32,000 bases of DNA from an uncultured Candidatus Cenarchaeum sp. Lineage in GTDB: Archaea > Thermoproteota > Nitrososphaeria > Nitrososphaerales > Nitrosopumilaceae. The first letter of the stretch is position 1. Every line of letters begins with the position of its first letter. The DNA lies in assembly GCA_958295735.1 (NCBI GenBank), contig OY282369.1, forward strand, positions 324,161 to 356,160. Reading direction: 5' to 3'. The notes under the pieces are model-generated. The model saw only the letters and a program-made list of their open reading frames with translations, was not told the DNA's origin and did not search any database. Made by a program: the position numbers and the translations under genes. Shown here piece by piece: positions 5,340 through 19,640 of the stretch.

Positions 5340-7410
5340 CGCCGGATCGCGCCGGCTCCAGGCGCTCGAGCACCTGCCGCGGGTCGTCGAGCCGCGGCGA
5401 GCACGAAAAGTCGCGGCACACGAACGCCGAGTCGCCCGCGCCGAACTCCTTGCCCCTGAACATCTCGTACCCGGACAGGGCGGCCAGCTGGGCCGCGTCC
5501 CGCACCGTCACCACCGCGGCCTCCGGCGCGTACGCGCCGGACAGCGCCACGGCCATCCTCCCGCCGGCGCCCATCACCGTCACGTCGACGGGCCCGCCCT
5601 CGCGCGCGCAGGCGGCGCAGAGCAGGTGGCCGAACGCGAACGGGTTCTCGGCGGCCCTGCGCGCCTGCGACTCCAGCGCCTTCGCGGCCGCGGCCTCCAT
5701 CTCCGGCTCGCCCGCGATGCCGTGCAGCCGCGAGAACGCGTGCACCGCCGCCGAGCTGCCCGACGGCAGCGAGAGGTCGTGCTCGCTCCGCGGCCTGACT
5801 ATCAGGTCCTCCGCGCCCTCGGCCGTCATGTAGAAGCGCCCCCCGCCCGGATCCCAGAACCTGTCCAGGATGATGCGGCACAGCCCGCGGGCCCGCTCCA
5901 GGTAGCGGGCCTCGGGATCGACCTCGAACAGGTCCAGCAGGGCCGCCGCGTAGAACGCGTGGTCCTCCAGGTACCCGCCGATCCCGGCCCTCCCGTCCTT
6001 GTACGCCCGCATTACCGAGCCCGACGGGCCGGACAGCCGCGACTCGACGAACCGCTCGCACCGCCTGGCCGCCTCCAGGTACGCGGCGCGCCGCGAGGCG
6101 CGGTGCCCGCGGGCCAGGGCCGTTATGGCCAGGGCGTTCCACGACGCTATCGCCTTGCCGTCCAGCCCCGGCGCCTCCCGGGCCGAGTTCCTGTGCTCCA
6201 GCAGGGCATCCCTCCCGCGCCGCAGCGCCGCCTCTACCTTTTCCTCCGTCAGGCCGCACCGGAACGCCACCGCCTGCAGGCCCGCGGAGTTGCTGAGCAC
6301 CGTGGATCCCTCCCAGTTGCCGCCGTCCGTCACGCCGTAGTACAGGCAGAACGGCTCGGCGTCGGCCGCCCCCAGCAGGCGCACTACCTCGGGCTTGGTC
6401 CACGCGTAGAACGCCCCCTCCTCGCCGCCCGCGTCGGCGTCCTGCGAGGAGCAGAACCCGCCCTCCGGCGTGGCGAGCTCGCGCAGCACGTAGTCCAGCG
6501 TCCTCTCCATCACGTCCAGGTAGCGGGCGCTGCCGGTCGCCTGGTACGCCTCGGCGTAGTTCGCGGGGATCAGGGCGTTGTCGTACAGCATCTTTTCAAA
6601 GTGGGGCACGAGCCAGCGCGCGTCCGTGGAGTACCGGTGGAAGCCGCCCCCCACGTGGTCGAATATGCCGCCCCGCGCCATCCCGTCCAGCGTCTTCAGC
6701 GCGAACGCCGTGAACGCCGGGATCCCGGACAGCCGCCCGTACCGCAGCAGGAACGAGACGCAGGCGGCGTTGGGGAACTTGGGGGCGCTCCCGAACCCGC
6801 CGTGCGCCCGGTCCCCCGAGTTCAGCAGGCCGACCGCCGCCTCGTCGAGCGCGGCGCGCCCGAGCCGCTCGGGCCCCGGCCGCCCCTCCGGCCCGTCCCG
6901 CAGCGACAGGGCGAACCGCCCGGCGGCCCTCGCCACTTCGGCGGGGTTCTCGCGCCAGGCCTGCGCCATGCGCCTCAGCAGGCTGCCGAACCCGGGCCGC
7001 CCGTACGAGTCGGACGGCGGAAAGTACGTCCCCGCGTAGAAGGGCTTCAGGTCCGGCGTGAGGAAGACGCTGAGCGGCCAGCCCCCCTGCCCCGTGGCCG
7101 CCTGGCACGCCGCCTGGTATATGTGGTCGATGTCCGGCCGCTCCTCGCGGTCCACCTTCACGTTCACGAAGTGCTCGTTCATCACGGCGGCCACCCCCTC
7201 GTCCTCGAACGACTCGCGGGCCATCACGTGGCACCAGTGGCACGAGCTGTACCCCACGCTGAGGAATATCGGCTTGTTCTCCTCGCGCGCCCTCTCCAGC
7301 GCCGCGGCGTTCCAGGCGTGCCACCGCACGGGGTTGCGCGCGTGCTGCAGGAGGTACGGGCTGGACTCGCCCGCCAGGCCGTTCTCCGCGCCGCCGCTGC
7401 TGCCGTCCAC
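5332..7410 (-). CDS. thioredoxin-domain protein of the DUF255/YyaL type (thioredoxin fold plus six-hairpin glycosidase-like domain)
   Basis: NRL-type N-terminus: GESSPYLLQHARNPVRWHAWNAAALERAREENKPIFLSVGYSSCHWCHVMARESFED...GGWPLSVFLTPDLKPFYAGTYFPP. The ORF is open to 7713, but that extension is a P/R/A-rich spacer translation and overlaps a better small ORF. An in-frame GTG at 7410 (VDGSSGGAENGLAGES) is the proposed start. Confidence 0.9.
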   Translation of the reverse strand: MDGSSGGAENGLAGESSPYLLQHARNPVRWHAWNAAALERAREENKPIFLSVGYSSCHWCHVMARESFEDEGVAAVMNEHFVNVKVDREERPDIDHIYQAACQAATGQGGWPLSVFLTPDLKPFYAGTYFPPSDSYGRPGFGSLLRRMAQAWRENPAEVARAAGRFALSLRDGPEGRPGPERLGRAALDEAAVGLLNSGDRAHGGFGSAPKFPNAACVSFLLRYGRLSGIPAFTAFALKTLDGMARGGIFDHVGGGFHRYSTDARWLVPHFEKMLYDNALIPANYAEAYQATGSARYLDVMERTLDYVLRELATPEGGFCSSQDADAGGEEGAFYAWTKPEVVRLLGAADAEPFCLYYGVTDGGNWEGSTVLSNSAGLQAVAFRCGLTEEKVEAALRRGRDALLEHRNSAREAPGLDGKAIASWNALAITALARGHRASRRAAYLEAARRCERFVESRLSGPSGSVMRAYKDGRAGIGGYLEDHAFYAAALLDLFEVDPEARYLERARGLCRIILDRFWDPGGGRFYMTAEGAEDLIVRPRSEHDLSLPSGSSAAVHAFSRLHGIAGEPEMEAAAAKALESQARRAAENPFAFGHLLCAACAREGGPVDVTVMGAGGRMAVALSGAYAPEAAVVTVRDAAQLAALSGYEMFRGKEFGAGDSAFVCRDFSCSPRLDDPRQVLERLEPARSGAT

Positions 7411-13651: not shown

Positions 13652-13725
13652 GCTTCGATAGCTCAGCCTGGTAGAGCGTTACCTTGGTAAGGTAAAGGTC
13701 ACGGGTTCGGATCCCGTTCGAAGCT
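13652..13725 (+). tRNA. tRNA-Thr (anticodon GGU)
   Basis: GCUUCGA UA GCUC AGCCUGGUA GAGC G UUACC UUGGUAA GGUAA AGGUC ACGGG UUCGGAU CCCGU UCGAAGC U. A TATA-like 'aattataagga' lies ~25-30 nt upstream. Confidence 0.9.
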
Positions 13726-14576
13726 CAGAAATTCCTGATCAGCAGCTCGTGGTGGCCCGACCTGCCGGACGAGTCGGAGTTGATCAGCCTGTTGGCGGTG
13801 AGCTTGGCCACGTTCCACCCGCCGAAGAGCCTGCGCACCGGCTCGGTGTCCGAGTTGGAGAGGACCACGCGGCACCCCGCCCCGTCCAGGCGGGCGTACT
13901 CGGAGGCCAGCCTCTCCAGGTCGGCGGCCACAAAGTCCCCCCCGGTGTACTGCGTAAAGCTGGCGGTCGCGCTCACCGGCTGGTAGGGCGGATCGAGGTA
14001 GACAAAGTCGCCCTCCCCCGCGCCGGCCAGCGCATCCGCAAAGTCGCCGGACGAGATCCGCACGTTCCCGGATCCCAGCAGCCGGCTGGCGGCCCGCAGG
14101 CCCTCCTCGTTCACTATGTTCGGGTTGGCGTACCTGCCCATCGGCACGTTGAACTTTCCGCGGCGGTTCACGCGGTACAGCCCGTTGAAGCACGTCCTGT
14201 TCAGGAACACCAAGCGGGAGCACACAGACACGGGATCCGACGGCTCCTCGCCCCGCACGCGGTAGTAGTACCCGGAACGGTCCTCCGCGTAGCCCGCGGC
14301 GTGGCCCCTGAGCGACTCTATGAGCTCGTCCACCCTGTCGCGCACCACCGTATACGCGAGGATCAGATCGGCGTTGAGATCCGAGACGAGGCAACGACGG
14401 CCGGGATCGAGCAGGAGCGTGTAGAACAGGACTGCCCCGCCGCCCAAAAAGGGCTCGAAGTACCTGCCGAACTCCCTCGGAAAGTACTCGCTCATGGCGG
14501 GAATGAGCCGCCTCTTTCCCCCGGCCCACTTTACGAACGGCCGCGGGGCCCTGTCTGCCAGATGCTGCTTGGGCAA
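13725..14576 (-). CDS. Dam-type (D12 class) N6-adenine DNA methyltransferase
   Basis: PFVKWAGGKRRLIPAM...YFEPFLGGGAVLF (SAM-binding FxGxG) and FVYLDPPYQPVS (DPPY catalytic motif). The stop codon (13725-13727) touches the discriminator base of tRNA-Thr. Confidence 0.9.
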   Translation of the reverse strand: MPKQHLADRAPRPFVKWAGGKRRLIPAMSEYFPREFGRYFEPFLGGGAVLFYTLLLDPGRRCLVSDLNADLILAYTVVRDRVDELIESLRGHAAGYAEDRSGYYYRVRGEEPSDPVSVCSRLVFLNRTCFNGLYRVNRRGKFNVPMGRYANPNIVNEEGLRAASRLLGSGNVRISSGDFADALAGAGEGDFVYLDPPYQPVSATASFTQYTGGDFVAADLERLASEYARLDGAGCRVVLSNSDTEPVRRLFGGWNVAKLTANRLINSDSSGRSGHHELLIRNF

Positions 14577-14818
14577 CGCGCGCTCTCCCGGGCGGGCCGA
14601 TTTAAGTCGTTGAGGGGCGGAGCGGGGCGTCCCCGCAACCGGCGGGCGCGCGGGGCGGCGGGCGGTCCGCTTCCCCGCCGCCCGGCGGCCCGGCGGGGCG
14701 CTTCCCGCTCCCGCGATGCCCCCGGGCCGCGGCCGGCGGACTGCACGATCGCGGAACGGCGGGGGCCGCGGGGATGCGGCGGAACGGCGGGGGCCGCGGG
14801 GCGGGATGCCCGGGGGCT

Positions 14819-14835
14819 CATGAAAATGAAAAGGG
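14819..14835 (-). terminator. T-tract after the amoA stop
   Basis: The minus strand reads TGA tcactccaccCTTTTCATTTTCat immediately downstream of amoA. Oligo-T is the usual archaeal termination signal. Confidence 0.45.
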
Positions 14836-14843
14836 TGGAGTGA

Positions 14844-15494
14844 TCAGTCCCACTTGGACCATGCGGCCATCCATCTGTACGTCCAGGTGTTCAGTTTGAC
14901 ACCTAACGCTGCCATGGTGACCGACAAGACAGCACCAGCGCCAGCACCTAACGCCACCGGACTGTTATAGAACTTCCCGACTTGGGGTTCTATTGGAGTC
15001 ATGTACGGGGGCAACGTGGGACGCGGGTACTTGAATGCCGTCTCCAGCGGGTCTGCCACTGTGATAAGATTTACCATGTTGAACAACGGCAACGACATGC
15101 CGACCAGCACGCCGCCGAACAGTATCAGCGAGTGCTTGTTCCGCTTTGTCGCCCAGTACGCCAAATCCAACAGCATCGCCGATGGAAGCCACACCGGAGT
15201 GACGATGAAGTCGTACGGGTAACCAAGTGCGAACCAAGCGCCCTTTGCCACCCAAGTGTACACCGTCATGATTAGCGCGTAGTACGTCGCCGTACCTGGA
15301 ACGCCCGTGAACGTGAGGTAGTACGTTGCGCCTACGACCAGCATCAGGGTTTGCGATATGGAGAACACCGTGTACGACGTCCATGCCCAATCAGTGTAGA
15401 AGATGTAGTCTCCTGCGTTAATTGTCAACAGGGTCGAGTTCACTGCAACCACTATTATGAACAAGTAGTGCGTGCACCGCCTAAGCCAGACCAT
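14844..15494 (-). CDS. amoA: ammonia monooxygenase subunit A (archaeal)
   Basis: 216 aa: MVWLRRCTHYLFIIVVAVNSTLLTINAGDYIFYTDWAWTSYTVFSISQTLMLVVGATYYLTFTGVPGTATYYALIMTVYTWVAKGAWFALGYPYDFIVTPVWLPSAMLLD... This is the canonical thaumarchaeal AmoA sequence and length. Confidence 0.97.
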   Translation of the reverse strand: MVWLRRCTHYLFIIVVAVNSTLLTINAGDYIFYTDWAWTSYTVFSISQTLMLVVGATYYLTFTGVPGTATYYALIMTVYTWVAKGAWFALGYPYDFIVTPVWLPSAMLLDLAYWATKRNKHSLILFGGVLVGMSLPLFNMVNLITVADPLETAFKYPRPTLPPYMTPIEPQVGKFYNSPVALGAGAGAVLSVTMAALGVKLNTWTYRWMAAWSKWD

Positions 15495-15515
15495 TGCTGG
15501 ATTGAAAAGGAGGTC

Positions 15516-15532
15516 AGTATATAAAATTTTAG
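15516..15532 (-). promoter_or_regulatory. TATA box of amoA
   Basis: The minus strand reads 'taaaattttatatact' 23-38 nt upstream of the ATG at 15494. It is an AT island in a GC-rich context. Confidence 0.55.
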
Positions 15533-15670
15533 AAGCGCTCTAGGCCGGCGCCTTTTGGCCGGATCCCGCCCCGCAGGGGCCCGCCGCGCGCCTTTTCCCC
15601 GCCGGCGGGGGCGGACGGCGGTTCCTGCGCCGGCGGGGGCGGGGCTGGAGGCACCCGCCGGCGGGACGGG

Positions 15671-15810
15671 GCCGGCTCGGGCGGGCTGCCGCGTCCCGGG
15701 CCCTCTCCGGCCGGCTCGGGCGGGCTGCCGCGTCCCTGGGAGCCCGCTCCGGGCGGGCTGCCGCGTCCCTGGGAGCCCGCTCCGGCCGGCTCGGGCGGGT
15801 TGCCGCGCGC
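15671..15810. repeat. imperfect ~34-38-bp tandem repeats in the amoA-amoX spacer
   Basis: 'ggccggctcgggcgggctgccgcgtcc' and 'gggcgggctgccgcgtccctgggagcccgctcc' recur 3-4 times. Confidence 0.8.
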
Positions 15811-15876
15811 GAACGGCCCGGCCGCAGCTGCCGCTCCCCCGCACGGGCACCGGTGCTAATGCCCACAGGCACGGAT

Positions 15877-15888
15877 AGAGAAAAATGC
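15877..15888 (-). terminator. T-tract after the amoX stop
   Basis: The minus strand reads TGAgtctccgaccctcgcATTTTTCTCT. Confidence 0.4.
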
Positions 15889-15901
15889 GAGGGTCGGAGA
15901 C

Positions 15902-16264
15902 TCAGTTGCCCACGAACAGCGAGATCAGCACCGTGCCGATCGCGGTACCGCCGAGCGTTACGCCCACGAGACCATTGCTCTTCTTTGTAGAGCCTTCCTC
16001 CGACACCTTCACGCTGAAGAGGTAGCCGATGGCTTCCACGATAGTCAGCACGATGAAGGCATAGTGGCCGCTCGGAGTGGGGTACGCCCAAGGATAGTAG
16101 TAGTATCCAGCAGCCGTACCGCCAAAGGTGGCAAGCCAAGCCGCGATGTAGGAAATCGTGATAAGACCCGTCATGTTTTCGACGCGCCGGCCGATCATTC
16201 TCTCGACGTCTGCAGAACCCGTGCCTCCGGCACCGCCCGATCCAAATCCCTTCGGAAGAGTCAT
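15902..16264 (-). CDS. amoX: AmoX (small three-TM protein conserved between amoA and amoC in archaeal amo clusters)
   Basis: 120 aa from the ATG at 16264: MTLPKGFGSGG...GLITISYIAAWLATFGGTAAGYYYYPWAYPTPSGHYAFIVLTIVEAIGYLFSV...GLVGVTLGGTAIGTVLISLFVGN. The position matches amoX. The 223-aa track ORF extends into GC spacer. A TATA box lies 20-33 nt upstream of 16264. Confidence 0.85.
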   Translation of the reverse strand: MTLPKGFGSGGAGGTGSADVERMIGRRVENMTGLITISYIAAWLATFGGTAAGYYYYPWAYPTPSGHYAFIVLTIVEAIGYLFSVKVSEEGSTKKSNGLVGVTLGGTAIGTVLISLFVGN

Positions 16265-16283
16265 TTGGACTGACGCAATACTG

Positions 16284-16297
16284 AATATATTAAAATC
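16284..16297 (-). promoter_or_regulatory. TATA box of amoX
   Basis: The minus strand reads 'gattttaatatattc' directly upstream of the ATG at 16264. Confidence 0.5.
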
Positions 16298-16747
16298 TTT
16301 CCTTGCTGAATCCGCGTTATATACTGCGCCGGGAGGCGCTCCCGCCCGCGTCTGCGAGCGGGCGCGGCAGCGGCCGGCAGGTCCCGCCCGCGGCCGCCTC
16401 CCGGAGCGGCCGGCTCCCTGGCCAGGCGCGCGGCGGAACGCGGCGGCGGGCCCCACGGGTCCAAGGCGCGCGGGCGAAGGGGCCGCGCGGCCGCTTCGTT
16501 TCCGCCAAGCGGCCAGCCGCCAGGCGCGGTTCCAGGCGCGCCCGGCCGTCGCCGGCAGGCGGCGGCATCCCATCTGCCGCGGCGCGGCCTGCGCCCCGCG
16601 GTCCCGCCCCCTCCCGCCGCGCTGCCTGCCGGCGGAACCGGCGATCGCGCATCGCGCCTAGGGCTTGGACGACCTGGCAGCTTTGGCAGCGGCGGCCCGC
16701 GCGCCGGCGGGCGGCAGCATGCAGGGCGGCATCAGGAGGCCGAAGGC

Positions 16748-16934
16748 GGGAGGCCGGCGGGGAGGGGGCGGGAGGCCGGCGGGGAGGGGGCGGGAGGCCG
16801 GCGGGGAGGGGCACGTCCGCCCCGGGGCCAGGCCGGGCAGGGCAGGCCGGCGGGGAGGTGGCGGGAGGCCGGCGGGGAGGGGCACGTCCGCCCCGGGGCC
16901 AGGCCGGGCAGGGCAGGCCGGCGGGGAGGTGGCG
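16748..16934. repeat. nested tandem repeats (22-bp x3, then 71-bp x2) in the amoX-amoC spacer
   Basis: 'gggaggccggcggggaggggg' occurs at 16748, 16770 and 16792. The 71-bp unit 'gggaggccggcggggaggggcacgtccgccccggggccaggccgggcagggcaggccggcggggaggtggc' occurs at 16792 and 16863. Confidence 0.85.
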
Positions 16935-16991
16935 CTGGCGTCCGGACGCCCGGGGTCGGCGCCTGCCGGGTCAGGGGCGCGAAGTGAAAAG

Positions 16992-17101
16992 GGCGCTGGC
17001 GCTGCCGGGGTCCGCAGGCAATCGATCCCCGCTTGCGGACGGGCCGCACCTCCACGTTGTTGAAGGCGCTGGCGCTGCCGGGGTCCGCAGGCAATCGATC
17101 C
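16992..17101. repeat. 37-bp segment duplicated at 73-bp spacing
   Basis: 'ggcgctggcgctgccggggtccgcaggcaatcgatcc' occurs at 16992 and 17065. Confidence 0.85.
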
Positions 17102-17323
17102 GGCGGCGCTGGCACGTGCCGAGTTTCGCGCGGTTCCGGCGGCCGCGAACGAACCCGGGAGCCGCCGGCGGGGCGGACGGCGGGCGCCGGGCATCCAGTA
17201 GCGCCAGGAGCGCGGTTCCGGCGGCGGCCGGTGCCGCTCCCCCGATGCGCCGTTCGGCAAACCAGAGGCCGGAGGAAAGAACAGCGGCGGCCCCTGACGG
17301 GGGGAGCGGCGGGCGGGCGGACC

Positions 17324-17427
17324 CGCGCGGCGCGCGGGCCGGAATGGCGCGGCGCTTTTCGCGAGCGGAACGGCGCCCTGTTCCCGCGGGCACCTCGCGC
17401 GGCGCGCGGGCCGGAATGGCGCGGCGC
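17324..17427. repeat. 32-bp segment duplicated at 72-bp spacing
   Basis: 'cgcgcggcgcgcgggccggaatggcgcggcgct' occurs at 17324 and 17396. Confidence 0.85.
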
Positions 17428-17636
17428 TGCCGCGGACGCTCCGCGGGACCGTCCCGCATTACGCAACGGCGCCCGCCGCGGCGCGCGGCCCGGCAGATGC
17501 TTTTCCCCCGCGTCCCCGCCGGCGGCCGCGGGCGGAAGGGCGCGCGGCCCCGCGCGGGGCCGGCCCGGAAAGGGCGGCGGCGGCCCGGCTGCGGGAGGCC
17601 GGATGCGGCGCGGATCCGCGCGCCGCGGTCACGGGG

Positions 17637-17737
17637 CCGGCAGGGGGCCGCCGGCCGGGGAGGCGGATCCTCTCCGCGGCGGCCCGCCGCCCGTCCCGCG
17701 CCGGCAGGGGGCCGCCGGCCGGGGAGGCGGATCCTCC
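17637..17737. repeat. 36-bp segment duplicated at 64-bp spacing
   Basis: 'ccggcagggggccgccggccggggaggcggatcctc' occurs at 17637 and 17701. Confidence 0.85.
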
Positions 17738-17748
17738 CCCACCGTCAG

Positions 17749-17760
17749 CAAAGAAAAAAG
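17749..17760 (-). terminator. T-tract after the amoC stop
   Basis: The minus strand reads TAAccgcaggtcgcgctttcgcacggcCTTTTTTCTTTG about 25 nt downstream of the stop at 17785-17787. Confidence 0.45.
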
Positions 17761-17784
17761 GCCGTGCGAAAGCGCGACCTGCGG

Positions 17785-18348
17785 TTATGGGATTGAGCGG
17801 CTGTACAGCTTGCCCTCTAGGGCCATCTTGTACATTTCCGCGACGTACGGGTTTTCGCCGGGCGTCTCCGCCCCGAGCTCGACCAGCCGCGCGTACACCC
17901 TGACCACGTAGGCCAAGGCGCCCATGAAGGCCACCACCACGCCCATGTTGAACATCCAGTGGTTGGGAACGGCGAAGATCTCCTCGACGAACCAAAAGTG
18001 CCACATCTCGTTGACGCCGATCGTGAACATGGTGGCAAGGTAACCGAGTATGGTCATCTTGAGCCCCGTGTTCATCGAGTTGTTCGGGCCTCTGAGTATG
18101 GGCACCCTTCTGTCGTAGATTGCGACCGCACCCCATCCCAGCGGCAGAGCCACGAAGTGGGAGTACAGCCACCAGTGCGCCGGTGTGAACGCGCTGTCCC
18201 TTATGGACGTCTGGTGCAGCGAGCCGTCGACGAAGTTGTCAACCTCGACCGACGCCGCGGTGGAACCCATTGCGATTACGATGAGCCAGATCTTTTTGAG
18301 CCTCTGGATCTCGACCTCTTTTGGGATCAATGCAGGCATTTGTGCCAT
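17785..18348 (-). CDS. amoC: ammonia monooxygenase subunit C (archaeal)
   Basis: 187 aa: MAQMPALIPKEVEIQRLKKIWLIVIAMGSTAASVEVDNFVDGSLHQTSIRDSAFTPAHWWLYSHFVALPLGWG...FTIGVNEMWHFWFVEEIFAVPNHWMFNMG. This is the canonical thaumarchaeal AmoC. Confidence 0.95.
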   Translation of the reverse strand: MAQMPALIPKEVEIQRLKKIWLIVIAMGSTAASVEVDNFVDGSLHQTSIRDSAFTPAHWWLYSHFVALPLGWGAVAIYDRRVPILRGPNNSMNTGLKMTILGYLATMFTIGVNEMWHFWFVEEIFAVPNHWMFNMGVVVAFMGALAYVVRVYARLVELGAETPGENPYVAEMYKMALEGKLYSRSIP

Positions 18349-18370
18349 TGGCTACCAGTCTGCCACGCGA

Positions 18371-18385
18371 CGTATAAGGCAATAG
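18371..18385 (-). promoter_or_regulatory. TATA-like box of amoC
   Basis: The minus strand reads 'tattgccttatacg' 24-36 nt upstream of the ATG at 18348. It lies in the AT-richer divergent amoC/amoB intergenic region. Confidence 0.4.
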
Positions 18386-18542
18386 GGCCGCGGCCCGCCC
18401 GCGAACGATCAAAAAACCACACCCGCAAAGGCGGGAGTGATGCTATTAATGCAGGAATGACACATATGAAGATAATATTTTAGGCCAGTTTTCGCCCCCT
18501 CCTCCATGCTAACCATCAATGATAAGCACTCACCCGCAAGGT

Positions 18543-18555
18543 AAAACATATAACG
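18543..18555 (+). promoter_or_regulatory. TATA box of amoB
   Basis: 'aaaacatataacg'. It is too close to the track ORF ATG at 18560, but 35-47 nt upstream of ATG 18590/18593. Confidence 0.5.
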
Positions 18556-18589
18556 TTCCATGTTGGGCGGCAAGAATCAAGGGATAGCA

Positions 18590-19159
18590 ATGATGGACAA
18601 GAAGATACTAGTGATAGGACTCGGCGCCGTACTGGCCTTGGGCACGCTCGGCTTCAACTGGATCGAGGCCGTCCTGCCCACGGTGGAGGCGCACGGCGTC
18701 CAGGCGCAGCTGCAGAGCCGCTTCGTGAGGATAGAAGACGAGACGTTCAACAGGCAGTCCCTCCAGACGGGCGAGACCCTGTGCCTCTCCGGCCAGTTCG
18801 TCAGCTTGGTGGAAAGGGACATGAGGGCGTGGAACTCCATATTCTCGGAGTCGACGAACGCCGGCAACCGCTGGGAGATCCTCTCCAGGGACCCGCCCGG
18901 AAACGTCTTTGATCTTCCAGGCAACTCCGTAGTTCCGTACGAGATATGCGCCAAGGCGCTGGAGCCTGGCCTGTACCACGTCCACACCCAGCTCAATGTG
19001 GCGCAGGTCGGCCCGGGCCTCGGCCCAGGGCAGACGGTGGTCGTTGACGGGGAGTACATCGTGAAGGAGATACCTTACGTGAACATTGCGTACCAGTCGA
19101 TCATCATCGGCGTCGGTTACGTGATCACGTTCGCGACGAGGCCCTGGCAGGTCATCTGA
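18590..19159 (+). CDS. amoB: ammonia monooxygenase subunit B (archaeal)
   Basis: MMDKKILVIGLGAVLALGTLGFNWIEAVLPTVEAHGVQAQLQSRFVRIEDETFNRQSLQTGE...: a signal/TM segment, then HGVQAQLQSRF, typical of archaeal AmoB, and a C-terminal TM. The start at 18590 is preferred over 18560 because of the TATA position. Confidence 0.95.
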   Translation: MMDKKILVIGLGAVLALGTLGFNWIEAVLPTVEAHGVQAQLQSRFVRIEDETFNRQSLQTGETLCLSGQFVSLVERDMRAWNSIFSESTNAGNRWEILSRDPPGNVFDLPGNSVVPYEICAKALEPGLYHVHTQLNVAQVGPGLGPGQTVVVDGEYIVKEIPYVNIAYQSIIIGVGYVITFATRPWQVI

Positions 19160-19165
19160 TCCCAC

Positions 19166-19177
19166 CTATTTTCATTT
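19166..19177 (+). terminator. T-tract after the amoB stop
   Basis: TGAtcccaCCTATTTTCATTT. The 'ttttcattt' core also follows amoA. Confidence 0.45.
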
Positions 19178-19276
19178 AGCCCGGAGGCCGAAGGCCGCCG
19201 GCCCCTCCATTCGGGGCCCGACTTGCGGGCAGAGGGGCGGGCCGCCCCGCGCTAGGCGCGCGGGACCTGGCGGGGG

Positions 19277-19374
19277 GGCGGGCCGGCCGCGGTGCCGCAT
19301 CGCGGCCCCTCCAGCTCCGCGACCTCGTTCCTTGCGCGACGAAGGCGGGCCGGCCGCGGTGCCGCATCGCGGCC
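19277..19374. repeat. 31-bp segment duplicated at 67-bp spacing
   Basis: 'ggcgggccggccgcggtgccgcatcgcggcc' occurs at 19277 and 19344. Confidence 0.85.
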
Positions 19375-19440
19375 TCCCCCCCCCCCCCGGCCCAAGGACG
19401 GCGCGCGGCGCCCGGAGTGCCGCGGCTTCCGCCGGCCCGC

Positions 19441-19552
19441 GCGGGGCCGGCAGGCCGCCCGTCCGCATCCCGGCGCGGGGCCGGCAGGCCGCCCGTCCGC
19501 ATCCCGGCGCGGGGCCGGCAGGCCGCCCGTCCGCATCCCGGCGCGGGGCCGG
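19441..19552. repeat. 34-bp tandem repeat, 3 full copies plus a partial
   Basis: 'gcggggccggcaggccgcccgtccgcatcccggc' starts at 19441, 19475 and 19509, with a partial copy at 19543. Confidence 0.9.
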
Positions 19553-19640
19553 CCGCCGAGCCTCCGCGGCCGCCGGGCGCACGGGCCCCGGCGGAGGCGC
19601 GGCAGAAATTGATTTTACGCCCGGGAGCGCGGCGTGCGGC

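Follow-up and report, generated by a model that had tools for sequence, protein, structure and literature searches.

The amo gene cluster of an uncultured Cenarchaeum: probably four ancestral single-gene units set in GC-rich filler DNA of a kind spread through the genome

The stretch of DNA analysed here (the window: 32,000 nt, positions 324161-356160 of contig OY282369.1 of an uncultured, sponge-associated Candidatus Cenarchaeum sp.) carries the genes of ammonia monooxygenase (AMO). The source genome is one contig of 3,166,131 bp with 69.9% GC, and we treat its genus as Cenarchaeum. We conclude with good confidence that the window holds a standard Nitrosopumilaceae amo locus, whose genes amoA, amoX, amoC and amoB form four monocistronic units of ancestral origin, and that the GC-rich spacers between them belong to a non-coding filler found throughout the genome. 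The first-pass annotation of the window had proposed that the cluster was split into four independent transcription units by these spacers. The independence of the units is upheld by the conservation and separability of their signals, but the splitting by spacers is not, as the units are older than the spacers and were published in 2012. Positions given below are those of the window unless stated otherwise.

The gene order that had been proposed, amoA(-), amoX(-), amoC(-) and a divergent amoB(+), was borne out by the listing of open reading frames (ORFs), by Pfam and by tblastn. All four genes are full-length, intact and adjacent, as expected for the gene content of a Nitrosopumilaceae-type cluster. 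amoA (14844-15494, minus strand) encodes 216 amino acids (aa) with a match to PF12942 Archaeal_AmoA (E 1.4e-118), and its product is 100% identical to that of three genus mates. amoC (17785-18348, minus strand; 187 aa; PF04896 AmoC) encodes a protein 95-100% identical to its counterparts in Nitrosopumilaceae relatives, and AmoA and AmoC together show 94-100% identity to their counterparts in most members of the family. amoX (15902-16264, minus strand; 120 aa) has no Pfam match and was recognized by its identity to the syntenic gene of relatives: 74-94% to the gene at the same position in Nitrosopumilaceae, and about 50% in two more distant genomes. Its start was set by a conserved ATGACT and by the position of the promoter; the exact AmoX protein is not on record elsewhere. 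amoB (plus strand, Pfam Monooxygenase_B) occupies 18590-19159 from its conserved start (189 aa), within an ORF open from 18560. The arrangement of amoA, amoX and amoC on one strand with amoB divergent is the same in genomes G001, G003, G006, G016, G023, G013, G008 and G018.

The main evidence for separate units comes from the signals flanking each gene. Upstream regions were aligned gene by gene, using the 20-kb amo loci of 18 relatives together with this genome (19 genomes). In the window an AT-rich box lies 20-47 nt ahead of each amo start, and for all four genes a TFB-recognition element (BRE)/TATA box at a fixed short distance is kept among the relatives wherever the start could be aligned. 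The box of amoA (ctAAAATTTTATATAc, 15516-15532, minus strand) ends 22 nt before the ATG, and an equal box at an equal distance is present in 19/19 genomes. The box of amoX (AAAGATTTTAATATATT, 16282-16300, minus strand) keeps its position in the 17 genomes whose match reaches the amoX start, with an upstream consensus of the aAGAAAGAyTTAAAAg type ending about 20-22 nt ahead of the ATG. The TATA box of amoC (ttgCCTTATACg, 18371-18385, minus strand) lies 23-37 nt before the ATG and aligns with the invariant ATATAA block of the relatives; across genomes this element reads CTTaCTTTATAT, with its end ~23 nt from the ATG. The BRE/TATA of amoB (aaGGTAAAACATATAACgtt, 18538-18557, plus strand) lies 34-52 nt before the ATG at 18590, and the conserved sequence upstream of this gene consists of GGTAAAACATATAAC, then GGGATAAC just ahead of the ATG.

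Since the boxes of amoA, amoX and amoC end 22-24 nt before the respective ATG, leaderless or near-leaderless mRNAs are implied, and the transcripts of these three genes are probably leaderless; the distance of 34-52 nt at amoB implies a short leader. The first ATG of the amoB ORF, at 18560, sits 4-5 nt past the TATA box, and the start conserved among relatives, preceded by GGGATA, corresponds to 18590. The ATG at 18560 is therefore probably not used, and annotations that give amoB 199 aa probably include 10 codons too many. Ahead of the amoB promoter lies a further conserved block (cATGCTAAcCATcaATGATAAg, 18505-18526, plus strand) with the consensus ATGTTAAnCATTGATGTTAA, comprising two ATGnTAA half-sites ~15 nt upstream of the BRE/TATA. 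We consider it a candidate regulator site, because its columns are invariant over 10 genomes despite the GC drift of the present one.

The downstream regions are conserved in a similar manner. A tract of at least five T, or a bipartite one, kept among relatives, follows each amo gene, and in almost every genome compared a bipartite oligo-T tract is located 10-35 nt past each stop. After amoA the tract (14818-14834, minus strand) reads cccTTTTCATTTTCa in the mRNA sense, 11 nt past the stop, and the motif TTTTCATTTT is kept there in most of the 19 genomes. Alignment of downstream regions, together with a scan for AT-rich boxes, placed the tracts of amoX (cATTTTTCTCTATc, 15874-15887, minus strand) and amoB (ctaTTTTCATTTag, 19164-19180, plus strand). 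Across genomes the tract after amoA and amoB is usually cTTTTCATTTT. The predicted terminator of amoC (17750-17779, minus strand), defined by comparison with relatives, consists of a small hairpin (17760-17779) and then a T-run (17750-17759); a hairpin of 4-6 bp with a T-run is present in 11/13 genomes. The stems differ in sequence (GUGC/GCAC, GCGC/GCGC and AUGC/GCAU, with a GGUCGC-type stem here), which suggests compensatory change. The shape of this element is that of a bacterial-style terminator; hairpins are missing from the T-tracts of the other amo genes.

When the GC-rich spacers in the interval 14.5-20.8 kb were searched for 12-mers containing nine or more A/T, each spacer proved to contain only two such boxes, one after the upstream stop and one before the next start. 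The boxes lie at 14818-14834 and 15513-15536, at 15874-15887 and 16276-16304, at 17747-17761 and 18373-18384, and at 18538-18557 and 19164-19180; the 1520-nt spacer thus contains exactly two (16276-16304 and 17747-17761), where, by our own estimate, chance would give ~0.02 such windows per 1.5 kb at ~17% A+T. The AT-rich boxes ahead of the starts and the oligo-T tracts behind the stops, both noted in the first-pass annotation for each gene, were hence found where it had placed them, and beyond chance. The 'ttttcattt' core that it saw after both amoA and amoB is likewise real, with only 13 occurrences in the 3.17-Mb genome (both strands).

The element TTTTCATTT has 13 copies in the genome, six of which come after long ORFs, namely those of amoA, amoB, an Fe-S assembly gene of the IscA/HesB type, a nirK-like multicopper oxidase gene, cdvA and a gene whose 559-aa product has no Pfam match. 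A published co-expression module of core ammonia-oxidation genes overlaps with this set (10.1101/175141). We considered the element as a mark of an ammonia-oxidation regulon and rejected this, since the orthologues of the Fe-S gene, the oxidase gene and cdvA in relatives carry generic bipartite T-tracts. We read TTTTCATTT as the ordinary strong terminator of the family, exactly conserved only at amoA and amoB.

The spacers differ greatly in length and composition. The amoA-amoX spacer measures 407 nt (76% GC) and the amoX-amoC spacer 1520 nt (80% GC), so that the two long stretches of repeat DNA reported at first were confirmed in both length and repeats; the amo coding regions have 55-61% GC. 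In place of the compact spacers typical of the family (~95-190 nt between amoA, amoX and amoC; ~245-275 nt between amoC and amoB), only that between amoC and amoB (50% GC; 211 nt if counted to the first ATG, 241 nt if counted to the conserved start) is still at the ancestral length. Compactness is typical of the Nitrosopumilaceae amo cluster, not defining. The statement of the first-pass annotation that these genes are close-set in Nitrosopumilus-type genomes was correct: in compact, low-GC (34-42%) genomes of free-living appearance the amoA-amoX, amoX-amoC and amoC-amoB gaps are 109-186, 94-120 and 244-275 nt. These compact genomes carry the per-gene promoter and terminator elements equally, and the four-unit architecture must therefore pre-date the spacers. 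Among genomes with conserved promoter boxes, the spacers range from 94 nt to >20 kb.

Long spacers in relatives had been named at the outset as a finding that would speak against a special split of this cluster. Within the clade they are normal, whereas free-living relatives are compact. The amoA-amoX, amoX-amoC and amoC-amoB gaps are 360, 1429 and 2241 nt in G001, which we take to be Cenarchaeum symbiosum A, 183, 826 and 241 nt in G003, and 480, 1627 and 703 nt in G009. The locus described here shares with G001 the gene order and orientation as well as the enlarged amoA-amoX and amoX-amoC gaps, but the spacers of G001 have 56-65% GC and no sequence in common with ours, and its amoC-amoB gap is 2.2 kb versus ~240 nt. 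In G002 and G004, the two largest genomes of the genus, the order is kept with 6.1 and 8.7 kb between amoX and amoA and 23.2 and 25.6 kb between amoC and amoX; Pfam searches with the ORFs of the amoX-amoA insert of G002 were uninformative. All Cenarchaeum genomes examined have an enlarged amoX-amoC gap, and the amo genes are scattered over the chromosome in G015 and G010. High-GC or large-genome relatives with long amo spacers are taken to be host-associated. Long spacers are thus ordinary for this genome and this genus.

Some of the relatives have insertion sequences (ISs) inside their amo spacers: rve-type transposases in G009 and G015, and a DDE transposase between amoX and amoB in G022. 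In these genomes, as in fosmid 19c08 (PMC3379541), extra DNA lies between the genes while coding sequences, promoters and terminators are intact, which is also the case here; unlike in IS-interrupted clusters, the extra DNA of our locus has no transposase, dispersed copies or terminal repeats. A dispersed family of repetitive extragenic palindromes or miniature inverted-repeat transposable elements was considered as the source of the spacers and rejected, the spacers matching elsewhere only weakly (69-79% identity, low-complexity).

The amo spacers represent a small part of a genome-wide feature. The genome contains 2936 islands of at least 78% GC, and a two-state hidden Markov model of composition, by which the filler segments were defined, delimited 1818 GC-rich segments making up 23.4% of the genome, with a mean GC of 83% versus 66% in the rest. 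The filler core of the amoA-amoX spacer (15565-15853; 289 nt, 87% GC, 33-39-nt tandem repeats) stands at the 53rd length percentile of these 1818 segments. The core of the amoX-amoC spacer (16326-17730; 1405 nt, 83% GC), which is free of AT-rich boxes, stands at the 96.6th percentile, with 61 segments at least equal in length; within a 22-nt-period array it includes two tandem 71-nt units, 97% identical (16770-16911). Filler also lies downstream of amoB (19179-19603; 86% GC, with 34-nt and 67-nt repeats). Intergenic GC (83%) clearly exceeds coding GC (66%), which inverts the relation usual in prokaryotes. A limited literature search found no description of such an extreme intergenic composition. 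The filler is close in composition to weakly selected or synonymous sites (83% GC versus a GC content at third codon positions, GC3, of 92%).

No trace of gene content was detected in this DNA. Codon periodicity was not found in the spacers (the genome GC3 being ~0.92), their longest ORFs have no Pfam match, and tblastx against the spacers of relatives gave only low-complexity matches of 12-17 aa and no remnants; the long ORFs in the spacers are spurious. Rfam searches yielded tRNA-like matches only, none of them within the amo locus. In comparisons with four other Cenarchaeum loci, DNA similarity extends over each coding sequence, its promoter (~40-50 nt) and its terminator (~20 nt) and then stops, and the spacers have no DNA homology to the other Cenarchaeum genomes examined.

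The spacers are full of local duplications. Several of these have a period of 71-73 nt and consist of a perfect repeat of 33-37 nt around 35-39 nt of unrelated sequence. A repeat search identified a 37-nt perfect direct repeat (16992-17028 and 17065-17101) around a 36-nt insert (17029-17064), whose sole other copy is at positions 242686-242721 of the genome, and a 33-nt perfect direct repeat around a 39-nt insert with a period of 72 (17324-17428). Three CRISPR arrays, of 69, 70 and 391 repeats, are present in the same genome (G000:C1:2941287-2983428, ~40 kb in total), with a 36-nt repeat and a mean period of 71.6 nt. The 391-repeat array is adjacent to a 675-codon open frame with a Cas1 domain (E 5.5e-87), possibly a Cas4-Cas1 fusion. 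The units of the window (37 + 36 nt and 33 + 39 nt) fit the CRISPR repeat and spacer lengths.

This periodicity is not confined to the amo locus. Direct-repeat pairs outside the arrays peak at a spacing of 70-72 nt (197 runs versus ~25-50 in most neighbouring bins), and loci with a single pair at 69-74 nt number 172, versus 29-57 in adjacent bins, with repeat lengths peaking at 36-37 nt. Eight of the enclosed inserts, including that at 17029-17064 in the amoX-amoC spacer, have a unique full-length donor at another place in the genome, and the similarity breaks off precisely at the insert edges, whereas 0/9 control matches behave in this way and all of them extend into the flanks. The eight donors share no common flank resembling a protospacer adjacent motif (PAM), the orientation of the donors being undefined. 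In the amoX-amoC spacer 3-4 candidate units of ~72 nt may make up ~15-25% of the length.

Such units fit off-target integration by Cas1-Cas2, and an integrase origin is what we infer from their structure. Off-target ('neo-CRISPR') spacer integration by Cas1-Cas2 has been described for the type I-E system of Escherichia coli. As in that case, a target of repeat length (36-37 nt) is duplicated around an insert of spacer length (34-36 nt) copied from the cell's own genome, and cas1 and large arrays are present; in contrast, we are dealing with natural scars in archaeal non-coding chromosomal DNA, where no PAM is evident beside the donors and no empty-site allele was seen. We tentatively suggest that the amo spacers belong to a genome-wide non-coding expansion (~23%) that may owe part of its bulk to the CRISPR adaptation enzyme, through insertion of self DNA in pieces of spacer size at sites outside the arrays, with at least ~170 candidate units of ~72 nt.

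Much of the layout of the four units has precedent. Bartossek et al. 2012 (PMC3379541) reported transcription of amoA from its own promoter and individual TATA/BRE elements for amoB, amoC and amoX, with C. symbiosum among the genomes compared. Our locus agrees with theirs in the TATA/BRE 23-24 nt upstream of amoA and amoC, the separate boxes of amoX and amoB, and the GGGAT motif before amoB; it differs in that terminators and spacer content were not treated in that study, and in that the signals here are isolated AT islands in 80-87% GC filler, with spacers 4-13 times longer than those of marine free-living strains. In ammonia-oxidizing archaea (AOA), the AMO subunits are as a rule transcribed separately. 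Members of the Nitrososphaeraceae have no conserved amo operon, yet all their subunit genes are co-regulated and reach some of the highest transcript levels (PMC10030591). In Ca. Nitrosopelagicus brevis under ammonia limitation amoA and amoB transcripts fall and amoC stays high (10.1101/175141); that paper also cites falling amoA/amoB and high amoC under ammonia limitation in N. maritimus. The differing response of amoC is direct evidence of independent control within a compact cluster. The question of how stoichiometry is controlled, which the first-pass annotation had raised, accordingly calls for no new answer, given a family without an amo operon (PMC10030591) and an amoC regulated apart (10.1101/175141).

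The bacterial amoCAB and pmoCAB genes, by comparison, are co-transcribed as operons. Archaea resemble these systems in that homologous subunits are encoded side by side, but in archaea every gene has a promoter and a terminator of its own, and amoB runs divergently. Sponge-associated AOA and Thaumarchaeota have been reported to have larger genomes, a lower coding density and an elevated GC content (PMC9289680; PMC7848895).

In the mechanism we propose, each of amoA, amoX, amoC and amoB would most likely be a monocistronic unit in this organism, judging from its sequence, and the per-gene layout would be ancestral to the family and not a product of the spacers. The strength of the promoters, together with trans-acting regulation, would determine the balance of subunits, as in AOA with dispersed amo genes. 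The filler would accumulate genome-wide, growing by local tandem duplication and ~72-nt CRISPR-like insertions, and would persist only in the stretch free of selection that separates a gene's terminator from the promoter of the following gene.

The locus does not have the form of a polycistronic operon: every gap contains a terminator-like and a promoter-like box, and the gaps measure 407 and 1520 nt. It could nevertheless be supposed that amoC, amoX and amoA are still substantially co-transcribed, by read-through past weak T-tracts, as an operon with internal promoters in which the spacers form long structured intercistronic RNA. The three genes do share one strand and, once past a terminator, a polymerase would meet no further T-runs or AT boxes in the spacers. 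We nonetheless regard this as unlikely, in view of the conserved bipartite T-tract after each stop (with a hairpin at amoC), the conserved promoter of each gene, the 6-26 kb and IS elements that sister genomes tolerate between these genes, and the different responses of amoC and amoA to ammonia limitation in relatives. Several observations do weigh against independent units surrounded by neutral filler. Archaeal oligo-T terminators can leak, so some read-through across the spacers is possible; the TATA of amoC (CCTTATAC) is weaker here than in relatives; and the neutrality of the filler is deduced from its composition and lack of conservation. Furthermore, an AT box lies within 70 nt of a filler boundary in 23% of cases genome-wide, compared with 16.5% for random windows. 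On these figures the pattern of two AT boxes flanking every GC spacer is unsupported as a genome-wide rule, and the amo genes therefore stand out by having retained signals very rich in A/T.

Another possibility is that the spacers are functional elements selected at amo, such as insulators, G-quadruplex or chromatin-organising DNA, or non-coding RNA genes tuning subunit ratios. Parts of them show a strong one-strand G-skew with GGGAGG-type repeats (skew +0.35 at 16700-16900), and the enlargement of the amoX-amoC gap throughout the genus could be read in the same way. Yet DNA of this kind fills 23% of the genome, the amo cores being of ordinary length among its segments; the spacer sequences show no conservation from species to species, they contain neither a promoter-like AT box in their interior nor an Rfam match, and the equivalent gaps of relatives hold transposases instead. 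Selection for such a function is in our opinion very unlikely. It is also extremely improbable that the spacers were created by mis-assembly of low-complexity GC-rich reads, error-prone though GC-rich tandem repeats are in assembly. The genome is a single 3.17-Mb contig, enlarged spacers are present at equal places in G001 and three other genomes of the genus, and over 16,651 nt another contig under a separate name, L050, agrees with the window without gaps and with a single mismatch, although it may derive from the same reads. Apart from this identical contig of the same species, no strain variants or empty-site alleles were found. The reading that best accounts for these data remains that of a standard amo locus with four ancestral units and genome-wide filler.

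Several further features of the locus and its relatives deserve mention. GC3 is low in the amo genes (amoA 0.73, amoX 0.70, amoC 0.84, amoB 0.86; genome mean 0.92), and a crude codon-usage gene caller missed amoA and amoX because of their atypically low values. In relatives with 94-100% AmoA identity the GC3 of amoA is 0.39, 0.52, 0.67, 0.73, 0.80 and 0.81, following the GC content of the genome. A Dam-like (D12 class) adenine methyltransferase is encoded at 13725-14576, directly downstream of amoA, and such a gene is also found directly downstream of amoA in at least five Cenarchaeum or other high-GC relatives (L032, L038, L039, L049, L051); GATC-containing boxes occur just upstream of the amoA and amoX promoters in several low-GC relatives. 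On the 75-kb contig L049, which shares its sample of origin with G003, the gene predicted in the place of amoC (6441-6731) is only 96 aa long with a weak AmoC match, and may represent a truncated amoC of a co-occurring strain. The order-level relative G038 has three widely separated amoC copies, each 91% identical to the AmoC of the window, with equal scores, a multi-amoC pattern familiar from soil AOA.

Since per-gene amo promoters were already known from Bartossek et al. 2012, our results are confirmation more than news for the biology of ammonia oxidizers. What they add is a clear comparative argument, from promoter and terminator signals that are identical at gene distances of 100 nt and of 25 kb, that the AMO subunit genes of archaea are independent transcription units and need no clustering for their stoichiometry. 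Their practical value lies in annotation, namely the amoB start at 18590, the likely leaderless amoA, amoX and amoC, and the spurious ORFs of the spacers. The more interesting question is why Cenarchaeum genomes (1.8 to 3.9 Mb) gather very GC-rich intergenic DNA, and whether the CRISPR integrase has a part in this. If the tentative role of this enzyme is true, the genome of a host-associated archaeon would be growing to a measurable extent through the off-target activity of an immune system.

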